In this document: piece by piece, positions 1 to 35,944 of the stretch
How positions within the stretch are numbered: position 1 is the stretch's first letter
How the letters are laid out: each line of letters starts with the position of its first letter
From: a virus
Virus record (IMG/VR): IMGVR_UViG_3300001199_000009
Coordinates: 1-51,476 of that record
Direction: 5' to 3' (one strand)
DNA length: 51,476 nucleotides
Translations under genes and position numbers: made by a program
Notes under the pieces: generated by a model
Seen by the model: only the letters and a program-made list of their open reading frames with translations
Told to the model about the DNA's origin: nothing
The model's database searches: none

Positions 1-51
1 GTAATAGGTAGCGTGTTAATGGTCATGGCAAGCGTGCCAGAGGTCGTAACA
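1..51. repeat. Terminal direct repeat (left copy). It is identical to nt 51426-51476, consistent with circular closure, an assembly overlap or terminal redundancy
   Basis: The string gtaataggtagcgtgttaatggtcatggcaagcgtgccagaggtcgtaaca is read at both ends of the window. Confidence 0.9.
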
Positions 52-5525: not shown

Positions 5526-6455
5526 TTAGTTAAACGTAGTTGAACCAAATACTGCACGACCTGAACCACACCCTTGACCCCAACGTGCCGCGCTCACATA
5601 ACCAAAAACGAATGCTAAAGTAATCGGCAACGCTTCAATTGTAAGTGGCATTTTGGTGTATTGAACGAATCCTAGATCCTCGTTTGTACCAGCAAAGAAG
5701 CATGATGGATCATTCAAGTATGGGTTTCCAATAATGCCTTCTGAGAAATAGCCACCATGATAGATGGCGTTGATAGCACGGTTTGCAGTATTCGGGTCAT
5801 CAGGGCTGAACAAGATTGTTTGTGCGAGTGGTGTTAATTGCATTGGAACCATTAACCATTTTGCACGCAAGTTTTTTGGATACATTGAAAAGCTCTTGAA
5901 AAGCTGAATCGCTGTAACGGCCGTTTGAAGGTTTCCTTTACTTAGTCCAACGGGAATTGGATATGTGTTGGCATAAGTACCTTCGGCTAGAATGTGCGCT
6001 GTTGAAAGCAAAGGTAGACCGTCACCTAATGCAGATGCGTTATTTCGCGCGTTGTTAAATTGATTCCACAAAACAATGTTTTCCAAAACTTCATGAGCGT
6101 CAACGAATCCGTTACGTTGAGCCGACCACTGAGCCTTATAAAGGTTATCTTGTTGGGCTTGAAGGGTCACAAAGCACGCATTGGTATACGTGTTAATGGG
6201 GTAGCTTGTAACGATACCTTCACCAGATGTGGCGATGCTCGAATCGGCCCCTTCACTCGTTTGTGAACCCCAATTAACGTCCCTCATTTCCATGTCGAAC
6301 ATTGGGTTCATGTCAGCATGTGCCGTACGATAAACCTTTTGGTGGAACTTGGGTAAAAGCTGTTTGGAACCTGCAACAATATTAAGATCCTTCAAAAGGA
6401 GGTGTCTCAATTGTCCCGTTGTTAATGGACTAGAATATGATTGTACAACAGACAT
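5526..6455 (-). CDS. Putative major capsid protein (HK97-fold-like, 309 aa)
   Basis: Strong SD AAGGAG. Size and layout (N-arm, long helix YKAQWSAQRNGFVDAHEVLENIVLWNQF, A-domain-like C-terminal half) resemble HK97-type capsid proteins. Assigned by resemblance and position only. Confidence 0.5.
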   Translation of the reverse strand: MSVVQSYSSPLTTGQLRHLLLKDLNIVAGSKQLLPKFHQKVYRTAHADMNPMFDMEMRDVNWGSQTSEGADSSIATSGEGIVTSYPINTYTNACFVTLQAQQDNLYKAQWSAQRNGFVDAHEVLENIVLWNQFNNARNNASALGDGLPLLSTAHILAEGTYANTYPIPVGLSKGNLQTAVTAIQLFKSFSMYPKNLRAKWLMVPMQLTPLAQTILFSPDDPNTANRAINAIYHGGYFSEGIIGNPYLNDPSCFFAGTNEDLGFVQYTKMPLTIEALPITLAFVFGYVSAARWGQGCGSGRAVFGSTTFN

Positions 6456-10544: not shown

Positions 10545-10657
10545 ATACTAAACCTTTCTTTATCCCTCAACGTATAACTATTTTACGCTATGGCCGCTAA
10601 AGTAGTAAGCAGGTTGTGGAGCATAACCGACATAGTGAATTTAATGGAGTAAAGCAG

Positions 10658-10888: not shown

Positions 10889-11044
10889 CACCAAGGGGAT
10901 TCCAACCCCTATTTACCCTTTCTAATTAAGGGCATCTTGTTTCAATGTCCACATGTAGACATCATGACGCAGCGAGAGGAATCTTCTCGCCATTCGGCGG
11001 CATCCCGCTATTAGATGATAGTGCTATGAAAAGATATTATCTTA

Positions 11045-11647
11045 TTACCTTTTCAAGTCCAATACGTTGCTTTGGTTCATTGCGTAAGGGTTCATACTAT
11101 TTTGACGTGCTTTTTGGACGATCGCGTTGTTCATACGTCGCTCACCATCAATGCGCGCTTTAATGCTATTGTGTGTTGCAATGTCAATTTTAAGCAATAT
11201 CTGATCAATACAAACAACAAATCTTTTATATATATCGCTGTGTTGGTTGACGCTTGGGATAGATGAAACCAACCACTCGGGCACTTCCTCTAACGTAACG
11301 CCAACCCATCCTAAATTCTCTTTTTCACGAATACTCATGTCATCCAAAGGACAGAACAACAAATAATAGCCTGCTTCCTCGAATCTCTCTTGAACCCCAG
11401 ATGGCAAACAAAAAGCGTTTTGGGCCCATGGCATTAAATCCTCGTTGCCCTTGTTGGCTTTAACGTTCCGCTCAATATCACGGTGAATCTTATTGTTTGT
11501 GCGATGTGTTTGACGAATAGGATCAGATGGACTGTGTGAAGGCCTACCACGCTTTCTATTTAAACGACCTTCAATAGGCACATCATCATGATCACTTGGA
11601 GCATTAAAGATTACAACTTGTTCCTCAAGATTCTTTTCATCTGTCAT
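11045..11647 (-). CDS. Hypothetical late protein (200 aa)
   Basis: AAGGA SD inside the end of the upstream gene. Last gene before the inserted cassette. Confidence 0.6.
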   Translation of the reverse strand: MTDEKNLEEQVVIFNAPSDHDDVPIEGRLNRKRGRPSHSPSDPIRQTHRTNNKIHRDIERNVKANKGNEDLMPWAQNAFCLPSGVQERFEEAGYYLLFCPLDDMSIREKENLGWVGVTLEEVPEWLVSSIPSVNQHSDIYKRFVVCIDQILLKIDIATHNSIKARIDGERRMNNAIVQKARQNSMNPYAMNQSNVLDLKR

Positions 11648-12705: not shown

Positions 12706-12723
12706 AATCACAACTTTCTATTT

Positions 12724-13236
12724 CTAATCATATGTAATGTCACTGCCAGCTAATCTGCGACGCTCTGCACGTGACGAATGAAGCCATGAAGAAGCATGTT
12801 CTCTAATTCTTTTGAGCTTGTCTTCAAACAACAAATAACAGTCCCACGTATCAAGCTCATCGTGCCGACCCATAATACGAGAATCGGCAATATAATAAAC
12901 CATCACACCATTTACCTTGCGTGACTGTGGGTGGAACTCCTCAAATGATATCCACTCGCCAGTTTTATACGGACATTCAGCGCGCGAACCGTCTTGGTTC
13001 TTTACTTCCTCAAAACAATGATCGCCAATCTTAAGAATCATGCCGTAGTTAGCTGATTGCTTCATTGAATCTGTTGAAAAAGAGGTTTGCACTAACCCCT
13101 GCATCATACTTATGCCAGGTGGGGCTAAAATAAGAAGCTCCCACAATGGAACACTTATTTTGGTTCCTAAATATATCTGGTCTAAATCGTCCCGACCAAG
13201 CGGGTTAAAAGTATCAAAATCGAGTAAATCATTCAT
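12724..13236 (-). CDS. Hypothetical head-module protein with a Cpn10/GroES-like sequence pattern
   Basis: PLWELLILAPPGISMMQGLVQTS...YGMILKIGDHCF...CPYKTGEWISFEEF...VMVYYIADSRIMG follows the GroES pattern P-L-x-D-R-V-hhh...GGI-hh...G-x-V-h-A-V-G...hhxGDxVhF...hhhhxxxDIhA. ATG 13236 has the SD GAGGGG. Confidence 0.3.
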   Translation of the reverse strand: MNDLLDFDTFNPLGRDDLDQIYLGTKISVPLWELLILAPPGISMMQGLVQTSFSTDSMKQSANYGMILKIGDHCFEEVKNQDGSRAECPYKTGEWISFEEFHPQSRKVNGVMVYYIADSRIMGRHDELDTWDCYLLFEDKLKRIREHASSWLHSSRAERRRLAGSDITYD

Positions 13237-13351
13237 TATCACCCCTCTAGATAACTTAACATATCAAAGTTTTGAAAAAATGTTTAGCTCTTTTGGAATA
13301 AAAGAAGCCAACCACCTTATTATCGGTCGTTGGCTGTTAGGTATGAATTTA

Positions 13352-13419: not shown

Positions 13420-13761
13420 CTAGTACGGTAAATTAGTTTGATTGCGTTGATTCAATTGTTGCTGCCCTGGCTGTGCCATTGGTTGCTGACCCATAGGCTG
13501 TGTTGGGGTGACAGGGGCTGGGGGAGCAGAGGGCGTAGCTGCCTGAGTAACAGTATTAACGGGTCCACCAACCGCACGTTTCGCGCGATCTGATGCATCT
13601 GGTGCCCCATGTTTTTTGAAATCAAAAGCGTTACGGCTTGGTGAGTAAACGCCACCACTCCCGCTTTTTCTGAAATCAAAACCGTTTTCGGTTGGGCGAT
13701 AAATTTTACTTGGGCCCGCTTTTTTGAAGCAGTAACCGCCGTCAGTTGGTGTGTAGGCCAT
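13420..13761 (-). CDS. Small repeat protein (three Y-x-P-x3-G-F/Y-x-F-K/R-K-x-G units, Gln/Pro-rich tail)
   Basis: YTPTDGGYCFKKAG / YRPTENGFDFRKSG / YSPSRNAFDFKKHG. Overlaps the portal stop. GGAG SD lies 9 nt before ATG 13761. Confidence 0.55.
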   Translation of the reverse strand: MAYTPTDGGYCFKKAGPSKIYRPTENGFDFRKSGSGGVYSPSRNAFDFKKHGAPDASDRAKRAVGGPVNTVTQAATPSAPPAPVTPTQPMGQQPMAQPGQQQLNQRNQTNLPY

Positions 13762-16414: not shown

Positions 16415-17978
16415 TATCTTCCTCAACAATCTTGTCCCTGTTCGTGATTAAACAGCGTTGAGCTAGTTTGGCTAGTGCCTGGCTCATACTATCAACAATA
16501 TCAAGGATGTCGGAGTTAGGGTCACCCTTAGGGAAATATTGAGAGCAGTACATAAGATGTTCGGCTGCTTTGTTGGGCTCTGTGTAGTCTGGCCCCTTAC
16601 AACCTAGCCAAACATATCCCGCTTCAATAAAGCCAGAAATGGACGCGCACCGTTCCTCTTTGCTGCCATACTTGGTGGGATTAAAACCAGTTATGGGCAA
16701 ACCATGTTGGCTTAAATCTTGTTTTACACAATAACCACTTACTTTGGACTCAATAACAATTTCATCGGGTTGCCATTTTCGATCAAGTTTAATAACCGTA
16801 TCCCTTAATTCTGGATACAACATCCTCTTGGAAAACAAATCAAGCAATAAAACATGTGCGGTATCGTAACGATCCCTAAAGATACCCCATGTAGTACAAG
16901 CATTAAAGGCACTTGTGTTAGACGAGGTCAACGCAGTATCCCAACTTTGTAGTACATATTCTATTTCGGGATACCATGATTCCTGCCAGAACTGGAACCA
17001 TGCGGGGTCAATCATATTGCCCTCACTCAACAAAGGGTTTTGTTGATATTGGGCTTGTATCATGTGCTTATCTAAACCAGCTTGGCTGATGTAAAGAAAT
17101 TCTTCTGTGCGCCATTTGTATTCCATGCGCTCGCCCTCTTTTGTTCGAGGGTCACGCCATGGTTCCTTTGAACCACGAAGGGGAACGGTTTCACAAGATC
17201 TATGCTCTTCATATGTTTCAGGAATCCATAAATGTACCCATCTGTTCTGTGAATCACTTCTTAAGATATTGCCTGTTGCATCATCAGGATCAACCCGTTG
17301 TTGCGTAATAATACGCCCTGGCACCTGACTACTTCGTGTGCGTGTGCCTGCAATATAATTTACTTTTCTATTTGATTCATCTCTAATTGACTTAGATGTT
17401 ATTGCGTCTATACTAGTGGGATCATCAAGCAAAATAAAGTGCCCTCCAAACCCCATATTAGCACTTTTAAGCGCGGTTGCGCGTCGACTGCCGCCGGATA
17501 GAAGCTTAAAGAAAGAACGCCTCCGTGTCTTACCTAAAGCAATACTCTTACCCCAAAACTTTCTGTAATCCTTGTGGTTAACAAGCTCTTTGCATTTCTC
17601 ATTATTTTCAAGTGACAATTCCTTAGAGTATGAAGTGCACAGCCACTGAGCTTTGTTATTATGAATCCACCCAAATGCTGGCAACATCACACAATAAATG
17701 TTTGTTTTACCCCCGCGGGGGGGAACATTAACAATCAAATCTTTAATGCGCCTAAAAAAGAATTCCTCACCATGATCGCATTGAGCTTTAATGTGCCAAT
17801 TATCAATGTATGGGTCGGTGTCTATCCTGTCCCAAAAGTATTTGCAGAACTCATAGAACGATCCCTCTAACTTCTTTTTTATAGCTTCTTCTTCGGGAGT
17901 TAGGGGAATATCAGAAGCGGTGTTTCGTTCTCTCAGTATTAACTCTTCGGAAACACGAGATAGAAAAGTCTTGCGCAT
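16356..17978 (-). CDS. terL: Terminase large subunit
   Basis: Walker A-like VPPRGGKT and Walker B-like HFILLDDP. C-terminal nuclease-like half with conserved acidic residues (IVIESK, DIVDSM). Lies upstream of the portal. Confidence 0.85.
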   Translation of the reverse strand: MRKTFLSRVSEELILRERNTASDIPLTPEEEAIKKKLEGSFYEFCKYFWDRIDTDPYIDNWHIKAQCDHGEEFFFRRIKDLIVNVPPRGGKTNIYCVMLPAFGWIHNNKAQWLCTSYSKELSLENNEKCKELVNHKDYRKFWGKSIALGKTRRRSFFKLLSGGSRRATALKSANMGFGGHFILLDDPTSIDAITSKSIRDESNRKVNYIAGTRTRSSQVPGRIITQQRVDPDDATGNILRSDSQNRWVHLWIPETYEEHRSCETVPLRGSKEPWRDPRTKEGERMEYKWRTEEFLYISQAGLDKHMIQAQYQQNPLLSEGNMIDPAWFQFWQESWYPEIEYVLQSWDTALTSSNTSAFNACTTWGIFRDRYDTAHVLLLDLFSKRMLYPELRDTVIKLDRKWQPDEIVIESKVSGYCVKQDLSQHGLPITGFNPTKYGSKEERCASISGFIEAGYVWLGCKGPDYTEPNKAAEHLMYCSQYFPKGDPNSDILDIVDSMSQALAKLAQRCLITNRDKIVEEDNERRFIKPASPEYDPAQYD

Positions 17979-18005: not shown

Positions 18006-18344
18006 TCACACCCATACAATATCATTTTTCCTGAGACGATAACCCAACCCATGATAATTAAGTATGCAACACGGATCACCACCGAGCACACGAATTGCTT
18101 TTCTTATATTGCAAATAAATACATTAATAACCCTAACACCACAAGTGTATTCCTCATCTTTATATAGTTCATCTAATATCTCGGTAAAGCGAACAACTTT
18201 ATCTGCATTCCTCGCCAGAATCTCAAGAACTTGATACTCACGCGGCATCATGACCAACTCTACCCCATCAACATACGCATAGAATCCAACGCTCTTGTCC
18301 AGCTCCAACGATAATTTCTTATATGTAACTTCTTCGTTTTTCAT
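18006..18344 (-). CDS. Stand-alone OmpR/PhoB-type winged-helix DNA-binding protein (Trans_reg_C domain only, no receiver domain)
   Basis: LSLELDKSVGFYAYVDGVELVMMPREYQVLEILARNADKVVRFTEILDELY...VINVFICNIRKAIR...ILNYHGLGYRL aligns along its length with the PhoB/OmpR effector domain. Confidence 0.85.
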   Translation of the reverse strand: MKNEEVTYKKLSLELDKSVGFYAYVDGVELVMMPREYQVLEILARNADKVVRFTEILDELYKDEEYTCGVRVINVFICNIRKAIRVLGGDPCCILNYHGLGYRLRKNDIVWV

Positions 18345-21375: not shown

Positions 21376-22671
21376 TCACCGATATAACTGTAGAGTTTGC
21401 CGCGGTATATCGTACTGGAATTGATCGTAAGAATATTTGTTGTTCAAGTAGTCCTTGTGGAACTGCGAGTTTACATGAAAGCAATAATCTGATTCACCCT
21501 CAAATGGCAAATCCTTAATCCAGGTTGCGTAATGATCGGGCCCCATTTTTGCAAGTAGAGCGAGGCGGGCTTCTTTTTGGGGTAGCGATTCGGTGCTTTC
21601 AAATCCAATTGCGCGCTGCAGTTCTTCCATTTTTTCAGACATGCTTTTAACTGGTTGGGATATATTCATCATCTTTCTCGCCTCTTTCTTAGGTTTTATT
21701 AACGTTCTAGCAAACATGTATAGATTCTTAAATCTCAGGGCCTCTGTCAAGTTTCCAGCGAGGTTTTCTTTCGCCCACGCGGCAAGTTTTCTAAAGTTCT
21801 CCCGTGTCGGCCGGAATATTTCCCGTTCGAAGATAGCCCCAACAAACGTAAAATACTTCTTGTGTCGCTCAATATCGACCCATCGTTTAGATCGGCCCAC
21901 ATTGCCCCGAAACACGGGGGCGTAGCCCTTAGTTGTCCCTTTGTGTACTTCCTCCTCAAGAACGACTCCCATGGCGTAGATGAGCTCTCCAAGGCTGCTA
22001 ACTGCTTCTTGCTGACAAAGCGCAGCATAGCGGGCGCCTCCATAGCGCTGCCGCGCATGCAAGCGTGAGTTATCCACACCCTTATCATCACGTATATGAT
22101 ATAAATAACCCCGTAGGGGATTGGATACCGTTTGAAGATGGCGGATTTGTTCGGGTTCAGCCTTCAACAAGATAGATTGTGTGTTGCAATTTCCCTTAGG
22201 ATTCGTGACGCATTTACGGCCTTTGTACCTACCAACCTTTTGTTTAAAGCCTGGGACCTTACGGATAATATGCATGGGGTCGAACTGGCATATATCCGTG
22301 AGCGTCATTTTTTCGCTATGAGGTCTAATACCGCAGGGGACATAATTTTGTCCCTTAAGGAACGTTTCGAGCACTTTATAGTTAATAGCGTAGCAGTTAG
22401 TAGTTTTGCGTTTAACAAAATCGGGCTTTCTAACCACGATGATGCCGTTTTCCACCAAGAACTTAAGCGCTGTAAAAAAAGAATTTCTTTGATAGGTAAC
22501 TGCGCTAATTAATTCTTCCGCCGTGGCCCAAACAAAGGGCATAACCCCCCCACCCACATCACGAACGAACACGCGTTCTGGGTATTGTGCATAAAAATCG
22601 TGCAAAACAATGAGTAGCTCTTCACATTTCTTGGTGAAAGTATTATACTTAAAAGTACGAAGAAAGGTCAT
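21376..22671 (-). CDS. Putative replication initiator (N-terminal winged-helix-like region, C-terminal DnaA-N-terminal-domain-like segment)
   Basis: ELISAVTYQRNSFFTALKFLVENGIIVV resembles a wHTH. GPDHYATWIKDLPFEG...FHVNSQFHKDYL resembles the DnaA N-terminal pattern (f..Wi.pL......l.vpn.f..dwi). Iterons abut its start codon. No catalytic motif recognised. Confidence 0.4.
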   Translation of the reverse strand: MTFLRTFKYNTFTKKCEELLIVLHDFYAQYPERVFVRDVGGGVMPFVWATAEELISAVTYQRNSFFTALKFLVENGIIVVRKPDFVKRKTTNCYAINYKVLETFLKGQNYVPCGIRPHSEKMTLTDICQFDPMHIIRKVPGFKQKVGRYKGRKCVTNPKGNCNTQSILLKAEPEQIRHLQTVSNPLRGYLYHIRDDKGVDNSRLHARQRYGGARYAALCQQEAVSSLGELIYAMGVVLEEEVHKGTTKGYAPVFRGNVGRSKRWVDIERHKKYFTFVGAIFEREIFRPTRENFRKLAAWAKENLAGNLTEALRFKNLYMFARTLIKPKKEARKMMNISQPVKSMSEKMEELQRAIGFESTESLPQKEARLALLAKMGPDHYATWIKDLPFEGESDYCFHVNSQFHKDYLNNKYSYDQFQYDIPRQTLQLYR

Positions 22672-22780
22672 AAGATAGGTCCTTTTTAGTTAAGTGCGAA
22701 GAAGGGTCATGTGATGTGTCCTTTTTAGTTAAGTACGAAGAAGGGTTCATAAGATGGGTCCTTTTTAGTTAAGTGCGAAG
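22649..22780. repeat. Iteron-like array of about 3.5 direct repeats, 39-40 bp each (TTAGTTAAGTRCGAAGAAGGGTCATRWGATGKGTCCTTT). The first copy overlaps the rep start codon
   Basis: Copies at about 22649-22685, 22686-22724, 22725-22764 and partial 22765-22780. Each full copy carries a rep-start-like ATGACC/ATGAAC on the minus strand. Confidence 0.8.
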
Positions 22781-22939
22781 CTCGGTCGGGCAAAAATTGC
22801 CTTGTCCTTGTTAAAAAGAAAACTAACAAGTTTTTCGGCTTGTGGTTAAAGAAGAAGAAGAAGGGGCAGCTTGCTGCTTTTGAGAGATGGATGGCTTTTA
22901 CCTCGCTTTCTTTTCTTTCTTTCTTTTTTTTCTTGTTCA

Positions 22940-23920: not shown

Positions 23921-24700
23921 TTATCTGTAGTCTCGTTTTCCCGCCATTATCAAGTTGTGACGACTAAGCGGGGTTAAATCTATCTGCTTCAATCCATCAC
24001 ACCTGAAAAGGAAATAATCACCAATTGTGGTGACATTGCAAAGTGGGCTCACATCCAACTGCTGCAAAGCTAGGCAATCGTAAAGAAAAGACTGCCCTAT
24101 CGTGGTGACATTGCTAAACGGGCTTAAATCTATCTGCTGCAATCCATTACACCAGGCAAGGAAATAATCACCAATGGTTGTTACGTTGCTAAGCGGGCTT
24201 AAATCCAACTGCTGCAAAGCTGTACAATAGGCAATGAAATAATCACCAATGGTTGTGACATTGCTAAACGGTGTTAAATCCAACTGCGTCAGTCCCTCAC
24301 AACAGTAAATAAAAAACTTCCCTATCGTTGTGACGTTGCAAAGTGGGCTTAAATCTATCTGCTTCAATTCGTCACATCCGTGAAGGAAATGACTACCAAT
24401 GGTTGTGACATTGCAAAGGGGGCTTAAATCTATCTGCGTCAATCTTCTACAACAGCCAAGAAACCAGTTTCCAATGGTTGTGACATTGCAAAGTGGGCTT
24501 AAATCTATCTCCTTCAATCCATAACAACAGGAAAGAAAATCATGCCCAATGGTTGTTACGTTCTCCGCATTGATGATCTCTATATTGATAATCTTTATTT
24601 CCTCAATTCTCTTGCGTGGGAAAGATATAGAGTCCATTTCCAGTACAGAATCACCCTCACAGTCAATTGTTAGCTTGCTGCCTTCAAAAGTAAATTTCAT
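23921..24700 (-). CDS. Leucine-rich-repeat protein, BspA/TpLRR type, 8 units of 25 aa (LRR paralog 4 of 4)
   Basis: Repeating L.QIDLSPLCNVTTIGDYFL..C.. units. Conserved N-terminal block MKFTFEGSKLTIDCEGDS. Start overlaps the upstream stop (ATGA). Confidence 0.85.
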   Translation of the reverse strand: MKFTFEGSKLTIDCEGDSVLEMDSISFPRKRIEEIKIINIEIINAENVTTIGHDFLSCCYGLKEIDLSPLCNVTTIGNWFLGCCRRLTQIDLSPLCNVTTIGSHFLHGCDELKQIDLSPLCNVTTIGKFFIYCCEGLTQLDLTPFSNVTTIGDYFIAYCTALQQLDLSPLSNVTTIGDYFLAWCNGLQQIDLSPFSNVTTIGQSFLYDCLALQQLDVSPLCNVTTIGDYFLFRCDGLKQIDLTPLSRHNLIMAGKRDYR

Positions 24701-25224
24701 CTATTTTCTCCTTCTTTAAGAGCCGCCATTACCGGGCTTAAATCTAACTCCCTCAATCTTCTACAATAGCCAAGAAAATTACTACCTATCCTGGTGACAT
24801 TGCAAAGGGGGCTTAAATCTAACTCCCTCAATCTTCTACAACAGGAAAGAAAATCATGCCCAATGGTTGTTACGTTGCTAAGCGGTGTTAAATCTATCTG
24901 CTCCAGTCCTCCACAACAGTAAAGGAAACGATCACCAATTGTGGTGACATTGCTAAGTGAGGTTAAATCCAACTGCGTCAGTTCATTACAATCGTAAAGG
25001 AAATCATCACCAATTGTGGTGACATTGCAAAGTGGGCTTAAATCTATCTGCGTCAATCCCCAAGAATCGTAAAAACACCAGTTACCAATGGTTGTGACGT
25101 TCTCCGCATTGATAATCTCTATTTCCTCAATTCTCTGGCAGTGGAAAGAATCTGAGTCCATTTCCAGTAAAGACTCACCCTCACAGTCAATTGTTAGCTT
25201 GCTTCCTTTAAAAGTAAATTTCAT
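24697..25224 (-). CDS. Leucine-rich-repeat protein, BspA/TpLRR type, 5 units (paralog 3 of 4)
   Basis: Same 25-aa unit and N-terminal block. C-terminal DLSPVMAALKEGENR. ATGA overlaps at both ends. Confidence 0.85.
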   Translation of the reverse strand: MKFTFKGSKLTIDCEGESLLEMDSDSFHCQRIEEIEIINAENVTTIGNWCFYDSWGLTQIDLSPLCNVTTIGDDFLYDCNELTQLDLTSLSNVTTIGDRFLYCCGGLEQIDLTPLSNVTTIGHDFLSCCRRLRELDLSPLCNVTRIGSNFLGYCRRLRELDLSPVMAALKEGENR

Positions 25225-25898
25225 CTACTTTTCCCTTCTTTAAGAGCCGCCATTACCGGGCTTAAATCTATCTGCTTCAAATCTTCACACCTGAAAAGGA
25301 AACCATGCCCAACTGTGGTGACATTGCCAAGCGGGCTTAAATCTAACTGCTTCAGCCCACCACAATGGGCAAGGAAATCATCTCCAATCGTGGTGACATT
25401 GCTAAACGGGCTCACATCCAACTGTGTCAGTCCATCACAAGCGTAAAGGAAATAATCACCAATGGTTGTGACATTGCAAAGCGGGCTTAAATCTATCTGC
25501 GTCAATTCATCACAACCGCAAAGGAAAGAATTACCAATCGTGGTGACATTGTTAAACGGGCTTAAATCTATCTGCGTCAATTCATTACACCAGGCAAGAA
25601 AACAATCACCAATGGTTGTGACATTGCAAAGCGGGCTTAAATCCAACTGCGTCAGTCCCTCACAATCGTAAAGAAAAGAATCACCAATCGTGGTGACGTT
25701 GCCAAGCGGGCTCAAATCAAGATGCTGCAAAGCTGTACAATCGAAAAGGAAATCATCTCCAATCGTGGTGACGTTCTCTGCATTGATAATCTCTATTTCC
25801 TCAGCACGCCTGCATGGGAAAGAATCTGAGTCCAGATCCAGTAAAGAATCACCTTCGCAGTCAATCGTTAGCTTGCTGCCTTCAAAATTAAATTTCAT
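25221..25898 (-). CDS. Leucine-rich-repeat protein, BspA/TpLRR type, 7 units (paralog 2 of 4)
   Basis: Same unit and N-terminal block. C-terminal DLSPVMAALKEGKSR. ATGA overlaps. Confidence 0.85.
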   Translation of the reverse strand: MKFNFEGSKLTIDCEGDSLLDLDSDSFPCRRAEEIEIINAENVTTIGDDFLFDCTALQHLDLSPLGNVTTIGDSFLYDCEGLTQLDLSPLCNVTTIGDCFLAWCNELTQIDLSPFNNVTTIGNSFLCGCDELTQIDLSPLCNVTTIGDYFLYACDGLTQLDVSPFSNVTTIGDDFLAHCGGLKQLDLSPLGNVTTVGHGFLFRCEDLKQIDLSPVMAALKEGKSR

Positions 25899-26497
25899 CT
25901 ACTTTTCCCTTCTTTAAGAGCCGCCATTACCGGGCTTAAATCTATCTTCTGCAAAGATGTACATCTGGAAAGGAAACGATCACCAATTGTGGTGACATTG
26001 CAAAGCGGGCTTAAATCTATCTGCTGCAAAGCTTCACATAAGGCAAGGAAACAATCCCCAATGGTTGTTACGTTGCTAAGTGGGCTTAAATCCAACTGCT
26101 TCAATCCATCACAACAGAAAAGGAAACGATCCCCAATTGTGGTGACATTGCAAAGTGGGCTTAAATCTATCTGCTGCAATCTTCTACAACCGTAAAGAAA
26201 ATCATTCCCAACTGTGGTGACGTTGCAAAGCGGTGTTAAATCTATCTGCCACAAAGCTCTACAATTGAAAAGGAAACAATCCCCAATGGTTGTGACGTTG
26301 CTCAGCGGTGTTATATCCAACTGCTGCAAAGCTGTACAACAGAAAAGGAAACGATCCCCAATTGTGGTGACGTTCTCTGCATTGATAATCTCTATTTCCT
26401 CAACGAGCCTGCGTGGGAAAGAATCTGAGCCCATTTCCAGTAAAGACTCACCCTCACAGTCAATCGTTAGCTTGCTGCCTTCAAAATTAAATTTCAT
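25895..26497 (-). CDS. Leucine-rich-repeat protein, BspA/TpLRR type, 6 units (paralog 1 of 4)
   Basis: Same unit and N-terminal block. C-terminal DLSPVMAALKEGKSR. Start abuts the stop of 26498..26992. Confidence 0.85.
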   Translation of the reverse strand: MKFNFEGSKLTIDCEGESLLEMGSDSFPRRLVEEIEIINAENVTTIGDRFLFCCTALQQLDITPLSNVTTIGDCFLFNCRALWQIDLTPLCNVTTVGNDFLYGCRRLQQIDLSPLCNVTTIGDRFLFCCDGLKQLDLSPLSNVTTIGDCFLALCEALQQIDLSPLCNVTTIGDRFLSRCTSLQKIDLSPVMAALKEGKSR

Positions 26498-27431: not shown

Positions 27432-27461
27432 TAGCTATCTAGAATTCTGTCCAGATAGCTA
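27432..27461 (-). terminator. Rho-independent-like terminator after the chaperonin gene (TAGCTATCT-N12-AGATAGCTA, then CTTTTCTATTT on the minus strand)
   Basis: 9-bp perfect stem read directly. A T-rich tract follows on the coding strand, 12 nt after the stop. Confidence 0.5.
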
Positions 27462-27472
27462 TCTATACGGGC

Positions 27473-29152
27473 CTACATGCCCATGCCAGGAAGGCCATTC
27501 ATTAAAGAAGAACGATCAGGCATTTTGCCCGTTCCTACAATCGCCTCTGTTGTCATAATCATGGATGAAACAGAAATAGCGTCTTTAAGAGCCGTTGTGA
27601 TCACAAAAGTAGGATCAATAATTCCCTCCAGCAAAAGGTTGACCTCATTGCCCGTTGAGCTATCAAAACCAAACGAAGAATAATTTACCTCTGCTTCACA
27701 CATGTAATAAGAGAAAAGTTTTTCGCTTGGATCAAAACCCGCATTGATCAGTATCTGAAAACACGGCTGCTCAATACCCGCAAGCACTATGTCAAATCCT
27801 GCTATCCAACCTGCACGGGAATGATCAAGGGGTGCCTCTTGCTTGAAGATACTCTCCCTATTAGCTTCAAGGGTTTGAGCTGCCTTCAATAAAGCAAATC
27901 CACCACCTGGGCTAATACCCTCTTTAAAAGCCGCCTTAACCGCATTAATAGCATCCTCAACGCGATCATACAGTTCAAGCCTTTCTACCTCTGTGGGAGC
28001 CCCCACGCGCAAGCTAGCAATACCTGTATCCAAACTTCCTAAACGCTTATCCAAATATTCTCGTGTTGAAGCGTCCTGGCACTTTTCAATGCTGTCGCGT
28101 ACTTGCTGGGCCCTCACCTGGCATTCTTCAGGATTGCCCTGGCCATTCACAATAAGAGTGGATATTTCATCAATAACACAACGATCAGCTTGGCCTAACA
28201 TATCAAGCGTGATTTTCTCGGGCTTAATACCTGATGCCATACTTAAATAGCGTGCACCCGTAATGGCCGCAATGTCCTTCAATAATTCCGTTCTCTTCTC
28301 GCCAGAATAGGGGGCATTCACCGGACATGTTTTTACTGCATGGCGATTGGCAATAAGCATAGCTAAGCCCTCGCCATCTATTTCATCACAGATGATAAGT
28401 AATGAACGTCCAGTATCTTTTACCGCAGACACAAGGTTGGCAAACGGTTTGAAAACAGGAATCTTTTCATTCCATATAAGAATATAAGGATTTTCCAACA
28501 AACATGTCTCGTTTGGCTGGTTCATAAAATAAACGCTACTCCAACCTTTGCTTATCTGACAGCCGCGGATAATCTCTAAATGTGATTTTGGAAAGTCTGA
28601 ATGAGCCAGCGTGATCACACCATCTTGGCCAACGTTTTGAACAGCCTCAACTAAAAGGGCGCCAATGTGCTTGTCTCCATTACACGCAAGGGTGCCAACT
28701 GATAAAATTTGTTCGTCGTTCTCAATGCTTAAAGAGCGGCTGCGCAATAAATCAACAACTCGACCCTCCGCCGCTTTCATGCCGCGCCCCAGGTCAATTG
28801 GGCTATAACCCGCTGTTAAAAGCTTGTAGCCCTCTTGAATAAATTTTTGCGCTAGAACAGTGGCTGTTGTGGTGCCATCACCCGCTAATTTGGCTGTCTT
28901 GGCCGCCGCCTCACGCACAATTTGAATGCCAATATTGATATCACTATCGTCTGTATCTTCAATATGATTAGCTACCGTTACACCGTCCTTCGTCATACGA
29001 GGGGGGCCTCCCCACGGATTCTTAATGGCCACATTGCGACCCCGTGGCCCAAGAGTGGTTTTAACAGCGTTAGCTAATAAATTAACCCCTTCCATCATTT
29101 TTGAGCGCGCTTGAATCCCAAGTAATACAGAGGAATTTTTATGTGTTGTCAT
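27473..29152 (-). CDS. groEL: GroEL/Cpn60 family chaperonin (559 aa), divergent phage-borne copy
   Basis: [20 protein letters not shown] (nucleotide-binding loop), [20 protein letters not shown] (GroEL [20 protein letters not shown]), apical GWSSVYF (GroEL GYLSPYF), C-terminal GLPGMGM tail. Confidence 0.92.
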
Positions 29153-29184: not shown

Positions 29185-29212
29185 ATCATTCCACAGCTTG
29201 AATGTAAGTCAA
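29185..29212 (-). promoter_or_regulatory. Candidate sigma-70-type promoter for the chaperonin gene: TTGACT-16 nt-(TGg)AATGAT
   Basis: Minus-strand -35 at 29207-29212 and an extended -10 at 29185-29190, about 30 nt upstream of the ATG. Pattern match only. Confidence 0.3.
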
Positions 29213-29514: not shown

Positions 29515-30597
29515 ATGGCAGCTAATCCTTCGTTTGTTAAGCATGATAGCTCTGAGAGAAACACCGAATCTGTTCGTATTTTTCAAGAAATCTTAAAACT
29601 CAAAAAACAAATCCACTTTGATGTCATAAAAAACAAATTTAACGGAACCATAAGAAATTTGTTTTGTAATTGGACATATCAATTGGGAATGGGAATACGC
29701 CGTGAACGCGACTTACATGCTCACTCCATCGGCAAACAATTTAGATTAACTCAATGGCACGCTGAGCTCTACTGTCTTTCAAAGAACTACGACGAATGCG
29801 CCGTTCAACTACTCGATAATTTTCACTTTCAACACAAATCACTCTTCCAAGTCGTTCAAAACGTCCCTGTGGGGACCTCTGCACTTGTATGGAAAGAAAT
29901 AGAGAAACACATAGAAAATCTCGTCAATATCCACAGGCCCTCTGTCTTCTATTGTGTTAGCATTTACAAAAGATACTATCGAATCCCTCTAAACGACCTC
30001 ATTCAAGTGGCATGGATGGTTTTAGTTGAATCTATCCAACACTATGACGTTGAGATGGGTGTGCCTTTTATCACCTACTATATGATACGCATCAAAGTGT
30101 ATCTCAGGCGCGCCTATACCAACTCGTGTGATATTATCTTGCGTGATGATGAATTCCTGCAATTTGCCAAACTTCAATACCTGCTTGAGAAAAACAATGA
30201 GGACCCAACCAACCCATCGTTTATCAAACGATGTAAAGCTCTCTTTAACGTGGATGATGTGGGGGCCCTTGTCGAAGATCATTTGATGAAATACAGCGCA
30301 ATGAATATGGCGGACATATCCAAGTTGCCTAACATTTCAATTCAAGATGAATCCAGAAACGGAACGTTTGAAGAGAAAAACGAAATTAAAAGCCGTGATA
30401 AAGCACTTATGACAGCAATTAACCAACTAGATGAAACAACACGTGAGATTCTTTTGATGAACTTTGGGTTTAAAGATGAACGCCACTATAATCGAGAGGA
30501 AATTGCCCTCAAGCTTAAAATACCCGTGTGTCGGGTGAGGGCTTTGAAAAATGCAGCCCTAGAAAAACTCAAGGAGTTAATGGAAAACCCATGGTAG
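29515..30597 (+). CDS. Sigma-70 family RNA polymerase sigma factor (360 aa)
   Basis: Region 2: DLIQVAWMVLVESIQHYDVEMGVPFITYYMIRIKVYLRRAY (cf. DLIQEGNIGLMKAVDKFD...F.TYA.WWIRQAI.R). Region 4: REILLMNFGF...REEIALKLKIPVCRVRALKNAALEKLK. Confidence 0.85.
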   Translation: MAANPSFVKHDSSERNTESVRIFQEILKLKKQIHFDVIKNKFNGTIRNLFCNWTYQLGMGIRRERDLHAHSIGKQFRLTQWHAELYCLSKNYDECAVQLLDNFHFQHKSLFQVVQNVPVGTSALVWKEIEKHIENLVNIHRPSVFYCVSIYKRYYRIPLNDLIQVAWMVLVESIQHYDVEMGVPFITYYMIRIKVYLRRAYTNSCDIILRDDEFLQFAKLQYLLEKNNEDPTNPSFIKRCKALFNVDDVGALVEDHLMKYSAMNMADISKLPNISIQDESRNGTFEEKNEIKSRDKALMTAINQLDETTREILLMNFGFKDERHYNREEIALKLKIPVCRVRALKNAALEKLKELMENPW

Positions 30598-31106
30598 ATT
30601 ATCAAATCGATCACCAAATCGAATCAATCATTTTAACACTTCAAAAGTTCCCCCCTATTAATATTATTGAGGTAGCACGCCTCGTTGGAATCGGGGTACA
30701 AGAAGACCCTAACCCACCTGAAATGATTAAAAGAAGTAGGGGGAAATCTTGGGGACGTATCGTAATGTACCCCTTCCCCATCATTTACTACAATAAAGAA
30801 GTATTACCACCCAATAAAATAAAGTTTGTTGTTGCAACACTTCTTAGCTACTGGGTCATTTTTAATGACAGACTTAAAAAAACAAATGGTTGTGAGTTCT
30901 ATCGCCTGTTTTGGTCGGAGCATTTCAAGAATGAAAAAGAAAGAAAAAAGGCTCTTAGGTATGCGGCAGACCTTCTTGTGCCCAAGCAAGCATTGAAAGA
31001 AATACTCCGTGTTAACACATTTGACGGCGACATAAATACTATGGCAAAGTATTTTGGAGTCCAACCTTCTTTAATATCTATAGTCTTAGGAATACCATAT
31101 GAATGA
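30591..31106 (+). CDS. ImmA/IrrE (DUF955)-like protein with a fully degenerate active site (HEXXH replaced by TLLSY), translationally coupled to the sigma factor gene
   Basis: ATG 30591 overlaps the sigma stop (ATGGTAG). KFVVATLLSYWVIF versus RFTIAHEIAHFVLH; AADLLVP versus ATDILMP; MAKYFGVQPSLISIVLGIPYE versus LAEVFNVSNSAMSIRLGVPFE. Confidence 0.55.
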   Translation: MVDYQIDHQIESIILTLQKFPPINIIEVARLVGIGVQEDPNPPEMIKRSRGKSWGRIVMYPFPIIYYNKEVLPPNKIKFVVATLLSYWVIFNDRLKKTNGCEFYRLFWSEHFKNEKERKKALRYAADLLVPKQALKEILRVNTFDGDINTMAKYFGVQPSLISIVLGIPYE

Positions 31107-33151: not shown

Positions 33152-33637
33152 TCAAGGGTACACCACCTTTGACTCAAATGGCACACCAAGCCTGATTGAC
33201 ATGGCACTGTTAGAAACATTGAACACCTCAGCAAGTGTTTCTATTGTTTCAATGTTCTGCCTTATAGCCTCATTAACCAAATCCCAAGGCATTAAAATGT
33301 CCGTAGCATAAGAATTAGCCTGTGTTTCAACTAAATTAGTTAAACCACTCCTATAAAGTGCGTCATCAATTATTTCATCCTTAATCAAATTACTATGAAG
33401 TACAAAATGGGCAATCTCGTGAGCAATTGTAAATCTTTGCCTGACTTTTGAATGATCAGCATTGATATAAATCACAAAACCATTCTCTTCTTTGGTGAGT
33501 TTGCCAGAAAGTTCTTTAGGCCAATCCTTTACAGTAAAAACCACTAGCCCCATATCACGAGCAATTTTCACAACAGGAACAGGCCATTTACTCTGATGTT
33601 TTGCAATGATTTCTTGCGCTTTGTCTAGCCTAATCAT
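33152..33637 (-). CDS. ImmA/IrrE family (DUF955) zinc metallopeptidase with an intact HEXXH
   Basis: FTIAHEIAHFVLH motif, downstream E..AN.YA.DILMP block and typical size of about 160 aa. Confidence 0.75.
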   Translation of the reverse strand: MIRLDKAQEIIAKHQSKWPVPVVKIARDMGLVVFTVKDWPKELSGKLTKEENGFVIYINADHSKVRQRFTIAHEIAHFVLHSNLIKDEIIDDALYRSGLTNLVETQANSYATDILMPWDLVNEAIRQNIETIETLAEVFNVSNSAMSIRLGVPFESKVVYP

Positions 33638-33646: not shown

Positions 33647-34450
33647 TTATGATTTCTGCGACTGAACCGACAACAATTTTCCATCATCGTCATGCGCTCG
33701 TGTAAGCCACCCGTGAAGGTATTTTCGCATCTTGGGATTCTTCTTTGTCACTGATAGATAATGACTCATCATGGCTATTCTTAGCTCAATCATCATATGA
33801 AGGGGATCAGCTTTGTTAGTAAGCTCAATCAACTTTTCAATCGGGGCGTTGTTAAGATCGATATTTTTTCCGGTGTCCTCCAGCTCTTCCTCAAGTGCTT
33901 TCCTCCAAATGCGCAACCCACCTTCCACACCAAACTGAACAACCATATCAAGAAGCTTGTGTTGCAGCTCTTCTTTAGCCACATCTTCAAGAGATGCTTT
34001 GTGCCAAAAATCCCTGTAATAGATGGCTGAAATATCATTTAACGTGAGGTTCTTTATGTCTAAATTGGGATAAGAACGTTTAGAAACTCCAAACTTTGTC
34101 TCACCGCCAGGGTCGTCCGGATCATTCACATAACCACCCTCATGCTTAAGAACTCTAACCAATGACCTTTGAAAATCAACGGACTTCTTAAAATCTAAAT
34201 CAATCTTATCTCGTACTTTATTGGCGTCGGTCAACACATCACTTGGACGAAGAGCTTCGTGTTCACATCCCTGTCGGCATAACCCTTGGTGAGACTGCAC
34301 GGAAGGTGGAGTATTAACCTCCGATCTATTTTGTAAGATCATAAATAATATCACAAAAAATGCAGCAAATATAGCTGTTATAGCTGTTAGAACAATGAAA
34401 ATCCTATAGCGATTAAAGAATCTTTTTGTTTTTTTAGACCAATTAAACAT
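33647..34450 (-). CDS. Membrane-anchored glycoside hydrolase family 108 muramidase (putative endolysin)
   Basis: VLKHEGGYVNDPDDPGGETKFGV matches the GH108 signature (EGGY.ndp.D.GG.T..Gi). N-terminal TM IFIVLTAITAIFAAFFVILFMIL. AAGGAG SD lies 6 nt before ATG 34450 (track start 34468 is a TTG). Confidence 0.8.
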   Translation of the reverse strand: MFNWSKKTKRFFNRYRIFIVLTAITAIFAAFFVILFMILQNRSEVNTPPSVQSHQGLCRQGCEHEALRPSDVLTDANKVRDKIDLDFKKSVDFQRSLVRVLKHEGGYVNDPDDPGGETKFGVSKRSYPNLDIKNLTLNDISAIYYRDFWHKASLEDVAKEELQHKLLDMVVQFGVEGGLRIWRKALEEELEDTGKNIDLNNAPIEKLIELTNKADPLHMMIELRIAMMSHYLSVTKKNPKMRKYLHGWLTRAHDDDGKLLSVQSQKS

Positions 34451-34464
34451 GAGGCTCTCCTTAA

Positions 34465-34929
34465 TCAAAAGGGTATATCATCATCTTCAGCTGTTGGCTT
34501 GGACGGATCAAAAGTCTTTTGCTCCAACTTTACTTCTACTGGCTTGTCCTCTAAAGCATCTGTTGATTCCGCAACGTCAGGTCGACTGTCCAACAAAAGA
34601 ATATCACCTCTAAAACGACCAATAATAATTTCCGTGGAATAACGATCTACACCCGAATTGTCTGTCCATTTACGTGTTTGTAACTGGCCCTCAACATAAA
34701 TACGAGAACCACTACGCACAAAACGATCAATGACATCCACAATACGGTCGTTCATCACCACTATACGGTGCCATTCTGTCTTAGATTTGCGTTCACCTGT
34801 GACCTTGTCTTTCCATAATTCACTGGTAGCTAGGGAGAAATTGGCGATCTGTGAGCCATCCTTCGTAAAGCTAATCTTGGGTGACTGCCCAACATTCCCT
34901 ATTAATGTAACCTTATTTAAACTTGACAT
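34465..34929 (-). CDS. ssb: Single-stranded DNA-binding protein
   Basis: NKVTLIGNVGQSPK...TEWHRIVVMNDRIVDVIDRFVRSGSRIYVEGQLQTRKWTD OB-fold pattern and a canonical acidic tail ending DDDIPF. Confidence 0.92.
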   Translation of the reverse strand: MSSLNKVTLIGNVGQSPKISFTKDGSQIANFSLATSELWKDKVTGERKSKTEWHRIVVMNDRIVDVIDRFVRSGSRIYVEGQLQTRKWTDNSGVDRYSTEIIIGRFRGDILLLDSRPDVAESTDALEDKPVEVKLEQKTFDPSKPTAEDDDIPF

Positions 34930-35014: not shown

Positions 35015-35377
35015 TTACCAAGGCAAGCTTTCATCAAGCATGGGTTCTTTGTTCGGTGATTGGCTGGATCCCGTTATCTTTAAGACATGGTTTGGAACAA
35101 AGCTAACAAATATTTTGCCTGTCTTTTCATCTTTCTTTTGTGAAATAAAACCACACATCATTACCGTGTCGCCTTGTTTAAAGGACTCGCATATTGAAAC
35201 GATGTGGCTAGACATGCAAAACACCTGCCACTCGCCTGATATCTCTGGGCTATTCTCCGATAGCTTAAACTTATTCAATAAATTGAACTTGGCAAACTTC
35301 TTGCCACCCTTTTCAATGACATTAACGTCGCTTGTAACAATACCCGACAAATTGCCACTATTAATATCTCCAATCAC
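35015..35377 (-). CDS. Second SSB-like OB-fold protein (120 aa from GTG 35377) with a variant C-terminal tip DESLPW
   Basis: NSGNLSGIVTSDVNVIEKGGKKFAKFNL...GEWQVFCMSSHIVSICESFKQGDTVMMCGFISQKKDEKTGK follows the SSB OB-fold pattern. AAGGAG lies 6 nt before GTG 35377. The longer track ORF (to 35500) has no SD. Confidence 0.55.
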   Translation of the reverse strand: MIGDINSGNLSGIVTSDVNVIEKGGKKFAKFNLLNKFKLSENSPEISGEWQVFCMSSHIVSICESFKQGDTVMMCGFISQKKDEKTGKIFVSFVPNHVLKITGSSQSPNKEPMLDESLPW

Positions 35378-35513
35378 TTTCTGCTCCTTTAAAACATTTC
35401 TACATATCTTATGATAACAAGGGTGGTGCCAAACAGTCAAATAACAGATACACTTGCTAGCAATGGGCAAGTTTATTTGAGTGCCCATCAACTTAAACAA
35501 GAGGAACTAAGGA

Positions 35514-35744
35514 ATGAAAACATTTTTGAGAGAACCAGACTGTGCAAGAATTACTGGACTGAGCAAATCGACGCGTCGGAATTTGGAAAAATTAGGTAAA
35601 TTCCCCCTACGCCGAAAGCTCAGTGCCAACACTATAGGCTGGCTGTCTGATGAAATTGAAGAATGGATGGAGGAACGGCTTAAAGATTGTGGAGTTCTCC
35701 CCTCACGTTTTTCTAAAAATAAAGCAAATGGAACTAAGGAATGA
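35514..35744 (+). CDS. AlpA/excisionase-family HTH regulator (copy 1 of a tandem duplication)
   Basis: FLREPDCARITGLSKSTRRNLEKLGKFPLRRKLSANTIGWLSDEIEEWMEER matches the AlpA pattern (...G.s.sT.yr....G.FP.p..l....v.W...ev..W). Confidence 0.75.
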   Translation: MKTFLREPDCARITGLSKSTRRNLEKLGKFPLRRKLSANTIGWLSDEIEEWMEERLKDCGVLPSRFSKNKANGTKE

Positions 35745-35944
35745 AAACATTTTTGAGAGAACCAGACTGTGCAAGAATTACTGGACTTAGCAGAACGACG
35801 CGTTGGCGTTTGGAAAAATTAGGTGAATTCCCTCTGCGCCGGAAGCTCAGTGCCAACATTATTGGCTGGCCGTCTGATGAAATTGAAGAATGGATGGAGG
35901 AACGAAATAAAGCAAATGGAGATCAAATAAACGAAACAGAATAA
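35741..35944 (+). CDS. AlpA/excisionase-family HTH regulator (copy 2 of a tandem duplication)
   Basis: Near-identical to copy 1 at the DNA level. Start overlaps the copy 1 stop. Confidence 0.75.
   Translation: MKTFLREPDCARITGLSRTTRWRLEKLGEFPLRRKLSANIIGWPSDEIEEWMEERNKANGDQINETE

Follow-up and report, generated by a model that had tools for sequence, protein, structure and literature searches.

The locus considered here raises the question of what a small tailed phage does with a chaperonin of its own. It lies in the window, i.e., the whole 51,476-nt stretch of DNA that forms the IMG/VR virus record IMGVR_UViG_3300001199_000009, in which a groEL-like gene occupies the minus strand near the middle. 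Is this gene a working part of its genome or a passenger, how long has the phage lineage carried it, and with which partner and on which proteins might its product act? We regard it as probable that the gene encodes a functional, ATP-hydrolysing chaperonin, an old core gene of its lineage, which would work together with the phage's own Cpn10-fold protein on morphogenetic proteins.

The groEL gene and its descent

The gene, its putative signals and its divergent neighbour are the following:

27473..29152, minus strand: groEL-like gene for a group I chaperonin (Cpn60), ATG start, 559 amino acids (aa)
27432..27461, minus strand: intrinsic-terminator-like hairpin, stem plus T-rich run
29185..29212, minus strand: candidate sigma-70-like promoter with an extended -10 element, TTGACT-16-TG-AATGAT, 33 nt upstream of the ATG
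29515..30597, plus strand: gene for a phage sigma-70-family factor (Pfam Sigma70_r4/r2, PHROG 351, NCBIfam sigma70-ECF superfamily), divergent neighbour of groEL

The preliminary description of this DNA had presented the product as a full-length GroEL, and both the Pfam and the Protein Data Bank (PDB) comparisons agree; every motif that it quoted is present in the translation. The 559-aa protein matches Pfam PF00118 (Cpn60_TCP1; E 6.9e-55, 187 bits) with residues 26-541 on profile positions 1-488 of 490, and it is about 40% identical to GroELs of solved structure (E 1.7e-119), residues 14-540 aligning with positions 10-523 of a 528-residue GroEL chain with small indels only. Its equatorial, intermediate and apical segments are collinear with those of GroEL, and there is no built-in lid insertion. 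Among the NCBIfam models, the protein scores above the cut-off of four GroEL subfamilies (e.g., 510.8 against a cut-off of 352) and is far from the thermosome model; the exception models for chlamydial GroEL2 and GroEL3 are not reached either (178.7 and 141.8 bits, with cut-offs of 600).

Judging from its flanks, groEL probably forms a transcription unit by itself, which starts at its own candidate sigma-70-like promoter and ends at a strong hairpin. The latter (27461-27432 on the minus strand) has a 12-bp stem, begins 11 nt past the groEL stop codon and precedes a T-rich run (CTTTTCTATT); as RNA it has a predicted stability of -18.4 kcal/mol (z = -4.7), which was equalled in none of 200 shuffles. 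Its sequence is not conserved at the orthologous groEL loci. Of the promoter and terminator between which the gene had been said to lie alone, the hairpin is thus well supported, and the promoter stays a candidate: it is a consensus match only, of a kind no commoner in this region than in shuffles. A similar TTGA..-spacer-TGnAAnnAT pattern occurs at a roughly equivalent position upstream of the orthologs on contigs L001/L002 and L004. The neighbouring sigma-factor gene is divergent from groEL, as previously described. Neither a CIRCE element nor a further copy of groEL was found.

A search of 5.8 billion proteins returned, besides the window's own protein on a 51,476-bp JGI contig, groEL orthologs of 77% identity (on a 50,141-bp contig), 67% (54,355-bp contig) and 67% (4.8-kb contig), together with two fragments; a look-up of the exact protein in the contig index gave no entry. 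Below these orthologs there is a gap, followed by cellular GroELs of 43-45% identity, the best of them at 45%; few of the best cellular matches carry a name, and those that do are mostly from Alphaproteobacteria. These values bear out the earlier statement that the protein is strongly diverged and no near-identical copy of a host GroEL. On the 50-kb and 54-kb contigs, groEL is still divergent from the sigma-factor gene and lies near genes for a GH108 lysozyme and a single-stranded DNA-binding protein (SSB), and the same divergent pair of genes is seen in L001, L002, L003 and L004, which are independent assemblies from ENA, Logan and JGI.

Between the window's gene and its 77% and 67% orthologs, the proportion of nonsynonymous differences (pN) is 0.167 and 0.230, that of synonymous differences (pS) is saturated at ~0.75, and pN/pS is accordingly ~0.2-0.3; between the 50-kb and 54-kb orthologs, the ratio of nonsynonymous to synonymous substitution rates (dN/dS) is 0.15. 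By these sequence measures, groEL is under purifying selection. The protein is also among the best conserved of the three genomes, most of whose other proteins share 35-60% identity. Identities of window proteins to those of the 50-kb and 54-kb genomes, respectively, are:

Capsid protein: 85% and 83%
Terminase: 78% and 76%
GroEL: 77% and 67%
Portal: 72% and 65%

The descent of the protein was examined in a neighbour-joining (NJ) tree with Kimura correction, which combined the clade (i.e., the window protein and its 77%, 67% and 67% orthologs) with 115 bacterial and 9 phage GroELs, the bacterial sample being biased towards the best matches. The four clade proteins form a monophyletic group in each of 50 bootstraps; the stem measures 0.52 substitutions per site, and they lie at distances of 0.95-1.24 from bacterial GroELs, compared with a mean of 0.29 among the bacterial sequences themselves. 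In reply to the question posed in the preliminary description, whether this is an old phage lineage or a recent capture from a host, the long stem and these distances argue for the former. The clade is not sister to any sampled phage GroEL, and the donor of groEL cannot be named because the NJ method is simple and the bacterial sample biased. Members of the clade were found in none of 185,579 GTDB genomes; a pattern scan of IMG/VR with the single GroEL protein gave no further member, a scan of IMG/VR with the GroES-like alignment found none, and a scan of JGI metagenomes yielded one distant partial match (38%).

Two more distant relatives extend the picture. A related GroEL, 42-43% identical to the window's, is encoded on the 51,829-bp IMG/VR record UViG_3300045391_007044, and another, with 45% identity, on the 24-kb Logan contig L102; together with the clade, these two are monophyletic in 40 of 60 bootstraps. 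In L102 the Cpn60 gene (8217-9890, minus strand) is directly divergent from the terminase gene (10001-11632, plus strand) and is not beside a sigma-factor gene, and this different position implies that the gene has moved within the genome while being retained. Across all four relatives, the identities of GroEL and of the large terminase subunit (TerL) to their window counterparts run in parallel, as predicted by vertical inheritance in an old phage lineage:

50-kb contig: GroEL 77%, TerL 78%
54-kb contig: GroEL 67%, TerL 76%
L102 (24 kb): GroEL 45%, TerL 46%
UViG contig (51.8 kb): GroEL 42-43%, TerL 44%

These data bear directly on the idea that the gene is an artefact or a passenger, i.e., a host groEL joined to phage DNA by faulty assembly, one captured very recently or a copy decaying without function. 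Such an idea could invoke the metagenomic origin of the window's assembly and the score of the protein, which is below the NCBIfam equivalog threshold. The same gene and neighbourhood nevertheless occur on independent contigs of different projects, and the contig is circularly closed; identity to the best cellular homolog is only 45%, with no copy found in GTDB genomes; and the 559-codon frame is intact, with invariant catalytic residues and pN/pS of ~0.2-0.3 at saturated synonymous sites. We consider this explanation exceedingly improbable. As far as sequence comparison can tell, groEL did not arise by chimeric assembly or by recent capture from a host; it has long belonged to the core genes of a small lineage of ~50-54-kb tailed phages.

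A second chaperone-related gene occurs in this phage group. The 54-kb sister genome encodes a 235-aa protein (L004 17504-18211, minus strand) that has a DnaJ (J) domain, its HPD motif intact; neither the window nor the retrieved portions of the 50-kb and 51.8-kb genomes have a counterpart.

The ATP site, the apical surface and the candidate lid

Residues are numbered here according to Salmonella GroL (548 aa, annotated record), and their functional roles are those which we take to apply from the GroEL literature. All four clade members retain T30, L31, G32, P33, K51, D52, the G86-D87-G88-T89-T90-T91 segment, D398, G414-G416, I454, I493 and D495, and the residues for nucleotide binding and hydrolysis are also identical in the L020 and L102 homologs. 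The set includes D87 and D398, on which the preliminary description had staked its claim of intact ATPase motifs. Of the allosteric salt bridges, the R197-E386 pair is conservatively held as K and E in 4/4 members, and the D83-K327 pair appears as K83 with E or D at 327 in 4/4 members and in the L102 homolog, a compensated charge reversal that would preserve the bridge. In the groove for substrate and GroES, Y203, F204 and L259 are kept in the clade, and Y199W, L237V and V263I are conservative changes. Positions of inter-ring contact vary (452 is F/Y/R/R and 464 is E/E/A/Q in the four members). The C-termini of the orthologs end in PGM, PGL or QNL.

The distribution of changes among the domains was assessed by taking the sites that are at least 97% invariant in the 115 bacterial GroELs and scoring those changed in all four clade members:

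Equatorial domain: 14 of 94 invariant sites changed (15%)
Intermediate domain: 8 of 29 (28%)
Apical domain: 43 of 85 (51%)

At 45 of the bacterially invariant sites, the clade is fixed for one new residue, which argues for new constraints rather than decay. The L102 homolog shares 14 of these 45 substitutions, the UViG homolog 12 (13 in an earlier alignment) and elemoB 9. The alignment suggests that the ATP engine has been preserved and that the surface facing client and lid has been rebuilt.

A candidate for the lid is found in the head-morphogenesis module of the same genome, where three genes are of concern:

12724..13242, minus strand: divergent protein of Cpn10/GroES fold, candidate co-chaperonin, 172 aa, with N- and C-terminal extensions
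11650-12711, minus strand: highly charged coiled-coil protein, 353 aa, with a low-complexity stretch rich in Q, P and Y, just downstream of the Cpn10-like gene
5526..6455, minus strand: major capsid protein, 309 aa (34 kDa), 26% identical (E 4e-13) to CRP-902 gp57, 'major head subunit'

The co-chaperonin candidate had already been pointed out in the preliminary description, and the assignment has gained support from a profile bridge, from hhalign and from a structural model. The 172-aa protein has a weak match to the PHROG GroES family (2e-4), and a BLASTP match (E 3e-5) to gp61 of roseophage CRP-902, which is itself a clear Cpn10 (Pfam, 2e-16). When a profile of its seven close homologs was compared with 1.84 billion representative proteins, 18 proteins were retrieved, among which P0139, P0140 and P0143 (library-wide E 1e-5 to 4e-4) pass the Pfam Cpn10 gathering score. 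With those three Cpn10 members included, hhalign gave 96.7% probability (4e-10); with the three left out, it still aligned the family to a small GroES alignment over GroES residues 3-95 (83% probability, E 8.8e-6). Shallow input performed poorly, AlphaFold reaching a predicted local distance difference test score (pLDDT) of 37 with eight close sequences and hhalign a probability of 4% (P 0.01), and both rose only when distant homologs were added. The AlphaFold 2 model built from 20 sequences has a pLDDT of 91.8 and a predicted template-modelling (TM) score of 0.87, and it shows a barrel together with N-terminal residues and C-terminal helices (134-164). In a Foldseek search of the PDB, the top 30 matches of this model are all GroES/Cpn10 (E down to 1e-5, target-normalised TM 0.60-0.74), with T4 gp31 at rank 34. 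The evidence is indirect but consistent, and indicates that the product of 12724..13242 is a highly diverged protein of Cpn10 fold. On each of the 50-kb, 54-kb and 51.8-kb contigs, the gene accompanies groEL.

The order of the module (terminase, portal, small open reading frame (ORF), Cpn10-like protein, coiled-coil protein, 200-aa protein, 240-aa protein, capsid) mirrors the segment of CRP-902 from gp61 (GroES) to gp57 (capsid), although in the window it is interrupted by a restriction-modification cassette. Position 5526-6455 was taken as the capsid gene because of its match to the CRP-902 major head subunit, and its product is the most conserved protein among the three genomes. The ORF at 11650-12711 was also considered as the capsid gene and was rejected, its product being charged, coiled-coil-like, rich in Q, P and Y and without a match in phage records; by its composition it looks like a scaffolding protein, not a capsid protein.

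From these elements we propose the following course of events. Ancestral phages of the group may already have carried a head-module GroES that acted on the host GroEL. This is the strategy of T4 gp31, which together with host GroEL folds the capsid protein gp23. The ancestor of the present sublineage would then, long ago, have captured a bacterial groEL, which would have been inherited vertically ever since, with its equatorial ATPase core preserved and about half of the otherwise invariant apical positions replaced. The captured GroEL and the Cpn10-like protein would have become a private pair, the docking surfaces of both drifting together. By analogy with T4 gp31 and GroEL, the pair might fold those phage morphogenetic proteins whose size the cage can accommodate, with the 309-aa major capsid protein as principal client; the giant internal proteins that the preliminary description had suggested as clients, at 963 and 1095 aa, would not fit the GroEL cage. 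Placed beside the sigma-factor gene and behind a sigma-70-like promoter, groEL could be transcribed by the unmodified host RNA polymerase and would in that case be expressed early, before the structural proteins appear.

Several observations weigh against this proposal. The score of the GroEL for the NCBIfam equivalog model TIGR02348 (475.8) is below its cut-off of 582.1, and its C-terminal (GGM)n tail has shrunk to a single GMGM. Position 234, a leucine in bacterial GroEL, reads A/S/E/E across the four members, and L237V and V264A are found as well; in E. coli these residues contact GroES and substrate, and canonical lid binding cannot be assumed since they are altered. On the side of the candidate lid, the 172-aa protein has no direct match in Pfam (at E 0.01 or better) or in NCBIfam, and both its AlphaFold 2 model and the strongest hhalign result were obtained with an alignment that contained the three true Cpn10 proteins. 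The loop expected to dock on GroEL reads G-L-V-Q, compared with G-I-V-L in GroES, so that the classical hydrophobic tripeptide is incomplete, and the model has a helix in this region, not a free loop. CRP-902, a related phage, possesses a GroES without a GroEL, and the Cpn10-like protein may therefore have been selected for use with the host GroEL. Finally, that the two proteins interact is something which we infer, and this holds even more for their clients.

Regarding the loop, the orthologs read G-L-[T/E/I/V/K]-Q, and polar residues at the second or third loop position have been reported for 23% of viral co-chaperonins (Marine et al. 2017, PMC5649160).

Some of the same observations could be explained if the two genes were uncoupled, the phage GroEL working lidless or with host GroES, and the Cpn10-like protein serving the host GroEL or acting as a structural or scaffolding factor. 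The jumbo-phage chaperonin EL gp146 reportedly works without a lid. The GroES of CRP-902 makes it plausible that the Cpn10-like gene predates GroEL in this phage group; the two genes lie ~14 kb apart and form no operon, in contrast to the known small phages that have both and keep them adjacent; and the degenerate loop tripeptide, the changed residues L234, L237 and V264 in GroEL helices H and I, the extra C-terminal helical segment (134-164) of the Cpn10-like protein and the adjoining gene for a coiled-coil, scaffold-like protein all fit such a separation. Simultaneous change of the loop and the docking groove is, however, also what is expected from a co-evolving private pair, and both genes are found together on all three complete clade genomes and on the distant 51.8-kb contig. 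The window GroEL is moreover full-length without a built-in lid insertion, and its identity to the jumbo-phage chaperonins of RisingSun and the AR9-like Internexus is no more than 22-26%. On balance, uncoupled genes seem to us unlikely, although this is the alternative to which we give the most weight.

The surrounding genome and the phage-host relationship

The features of the genome that bear on the lifestyle of the phage are listed below.

1..51, with a copy at 51426-51476, no strand: terminal overlap, repeat family D6, 100% identity over 51 nt
7366-9998, plus strand: type I restriction-modification cassette with M and S genes
13742-16429: portal/adaptor-like protein, phage-family match
16356-17978: large terminase (TerL), phage-family match
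Several ORFs: virion proteins, phage-family matches
23921-26497, minus strand: four tandem LRR_5 (leucine-rich repeat) genes, 259, 175, 225 and 200 aa
26498-26992 (minus), 33152-33637 (minus) and 30528-31106 (plus): IrrE/M78-type peptidase-like or metalloprotease-like genes
33647-34468: GH108 lysozyme
34465-34929: SSB

A repeat search showed that bases 1-51 are identical to 51426-51476 (100% over 51 nt). Because of these identical ends, the contig is considered circularly closed and complete, with 51,425 bp of unique sequence. Together with the terminase, the portal/adaptor-like gene and the virion proteins, the closed ends confirm the earlier view of a phage-like genome. When 20 kb of the window were compared by megablast with 50,697 phage records, there were no matches. 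At the protein level, the terminase is 31% identical to those of roseophages CRP-901 and CRP-902 and 25-28% identical to those of pelagiphages HTVC023P and HTVC027P, and the portal is 25% identical to that of CRP-902; the head and packaging genes of this groEL-bearing lineage are, on these sequence matches, distant kin of the corresponding genes in the four phages. No tRNA genes were found in the window. The preliminary description had also stated that the genome has no replication machinery of its own, which holds insofar as no polymerase, primase or helicase was found among the window ORFs scanned, but not for the SSB and for a protein with a weak DnaA_N-like match, whose gene lies next to tandem repeats. 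The repeats in question are three tandem 40-nt units (22668-22787, minus strand; 85-90% alike) that abut the start of a 431-aa gene (21376-22671, minus strand), the first unit overlapping its first codons, and the DnaA_N-like match is to the 431-aa protein; the two may represent an origin with iterons and its initiator.

Further observations concern regulation and repeated DNA. Two IrrE/M78-type peptidase-like genes (one strong match and one weak) and a metalloprotease-like gene (PHROG 87) flank the groEL/sigma-factor region and may be antirepressor- or switch-type regulators. Just upstream of the terminase gene, 18006-18344 (minus strand) encodes a 112-aa protein with an OmpR-type winged-helix domain (Trans_reg_C, 2e-14) and no receiver domain. 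Two direct 208-nt copies (88% identity, 227 nt from start to start) occupy 35490-35924, a region with no strongly supported coding ORF that overlaps the end of the mechanical ORF 35015-35500.

The restriction-modification cassette consists of a HsdM-like methylase (522 aa) and a specificity subunit (355 aa), without an R subunit. It lies on the strand opposite to the head module, which it splits, and is absent from both sister genomes. HsdM is 72-80% identical to proteins of many bacterial phyla, the best match being an alphaproteobacterial metagenome-assembled genome (80%), followed by Caedibacter varicaedens (77%), and the second target-recognition domain of HsdS is closest to Caedibacter (74%). 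The four LRR_5 genes are paralogous, with BspA-type repeats and a DNA periodicity of 75 nt, and lie 1-3.5 kb from groEL. The 50-kb sister genome has, instead, several ankyrin-repeat and ankyrin-plus-LRR genes downstream of groEL (L001 13399-15691). Repeat families of the LRR and ankyrin types are typical of bacteria that live inside eukaryotic cells.

Indications of the host are weak and of three kinds: the relatives of the terminase infect Alphaproteobacteria, the 54-kb genome has a Ros/MucR-type regulator, and the HsdM/HsdS matches include C. varicaedens. In this context, the chaperonin might serve host manipulation rather than virion assembly, either by supplementing or replacing the limiting GroEL of an intracellular or symbiotic alphaproteobacterial host or by folding the LRR_5 and ankyrin proteins. 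Such a role would suit the proximity of the LRR_5 genes to groEL and of the ankyrin and LRR genes to its ortholog in the 50-kb sister, the location of groEL in a regulatory region by the sigma-factor gene, outside the structural module, and the weak hints to Alphaproteobacteria and the Paramecium symbiont Caedibacter; the J-domain protein with its HPD motif in the 54-kb sister would suggest a wider interference with host chaperones. The methylase that provides part of these hints is, on the other hand, similarly conserved across many phyla, the LRR and ankyrin content varies between genomes whereas GroEL is conserved like capsid and terminase, and the Cpn10-fold gene inside the head module points to morphogenesis. 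We therefore find host manipulation distinctly unlikely as the main role.

A chaperonin for morphogenesis, which we prefer, can be taken further, to a private, co-evolved pair dedicated to capsid assembly. In this extended form, the apical domain would have been reshaped to suit a single client or a small number of them, and the C-terminal helices of the lid would tie it to head assembly, given that it is encoded next to the coiled-coil, scaffold-like protein; folding would then be coupled to procapsid assembly. The host could be an intracellular alphaproteobacterial symbiont, its own chaperonin capacity being committed elsewhere, a possibility at which the LRR and ankyrin genes of these phages hint. 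So specific a scheme has, in our estimate, only a small chance of being correct as a whole.

Comparison with known chaperonin systems

The bacterial GroEL/GroES system of E. coli and Salmonella (GroL-GroS) is the natural reference. Like its bacterial counterpart, the window GroEL is full-length and collinear, with ~40% identity and identical ATP residues, and a Cpn10-fold partner is encoded in the same genome. It differs in that half of the conserved apical positions are replaced, L234, L237 and V264 are altered and Y199 is W; it also has the D83/K327 charge swap, variable positions 452 and 464 and a GMGM tail, and the gene lacks CIRCE. The partner, for its part, differs from bacterial GroES in being encoded by an unlinked gene, in its length of 172 aa with terminal extensions and in its G-L-V-Q loop.

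Among phages, the preliminary description had assumed that GroEL is rare outside the jumbo phages. This view overstates the rarity, since a tblastn search of the 50,697 phage records detected GroEL-like genes in 248 of them, including genomes of 43, 60 and 73 kb. Examples of modest size are the Flavobacterium podophages of ~60 kb, in which GroEL>GroES forms an operon, Cellulophaga phage phi38:1 (72.5 kb), with a Cpn10 gene two genes away, and a complete circular genome of 42.9 kb in which groEL lies between the terminase and portal genes. Viral GroEL/GroES genes are likewise common in the virioplankton and in marine viromes, where 'GroEL-only' contigs also occur (Marine et al. 2017, PMC5649160). 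The window resembles Flavobacterium phage vB_FspP_elemo (~60 kb), Cellulophaga phi38:1 and the virome clades of Marine et al. in combining a phage GroEL and a co-chaperonin with a modest genome. Its protein is only 28-33% identical to the GroELs of these small and medium phages, however, and does not group with them in the NJ tree, and their groEL and groES genes are adjacent or nearly so, whereas in the window ~14 kb separate groEL from the Cpn10-like gene, which belongs to the head module.

With the jumbo-phage chaperonins (EL gp146, OBP gp246 and AR9 gp228), the window protein shares membership of the phage Cpn60-family ATPases. It is only 22.7-25.6% identical to the chaperonins of Bacillus phage Internexus (AR9-like) and Erwinia phage RisingSun, whose NJ distances are 2.37-2.45, compared with ~1.07 for its distance to bacterial GroELs; it is thus far closer to cellular GroEL than the jumbo-phage chaperonins are, and it has a candidate lid. 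Jumbo-phage chaperonins are reported to work without a co-chaperonin, and that of AR9 as a single ring (PMC7185714, PMC9598537).

A third comparison concerns phage co-chaperonins. T4 gp31, RB49 CocO and CRP-902 gp61 are, like the 172-aa protein, Cpn10-fold proteins encoded with head genes, and CRP-902 gp61 holds the equivalent position, four genes before the capsid gene. T4, RB49 and CRP-902 have no GroEL of their own (a search of CRP-902 found none), whereas the window has one, and the 172-aa protein is longer than these co-chaperonins, with extra C-terminal helices.

Phage chaperonins can be regarded as natural experiments in re-specialising the GroEL machine. In the present lineage, the ATPase core and the allosteric salt bridges are retained (one bridge by charge swap) and yet half of the 'untouchable' apical residues are exchanged, and the lineage would offer a compact system for asking which features of GroEL/GroES are truly needed for encapsulation and which set client specificity. 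Virome contigs classed as 'GroEL only' may in addition encode a co-chaperonin that escapes recognition, its gene unlinked to groEL and placed with the head genes. The co-divergence of GroEL and terminase across these ~50-kb phages implies that carriage of a chaperonin can be an old and stable trait of small phages, not a jumbo luxury.

In relation to the systems described above, the window GroEL is, by sequence, a separate lineage among already known phage GroELs. What is new lies in the detail: an unlinked Cpn10-like partner in the head module that is invisible to standard profiles, remodelling biased towards the apical domain and accompanied by a salt-bridge swap, and co-divergence with the terminase.

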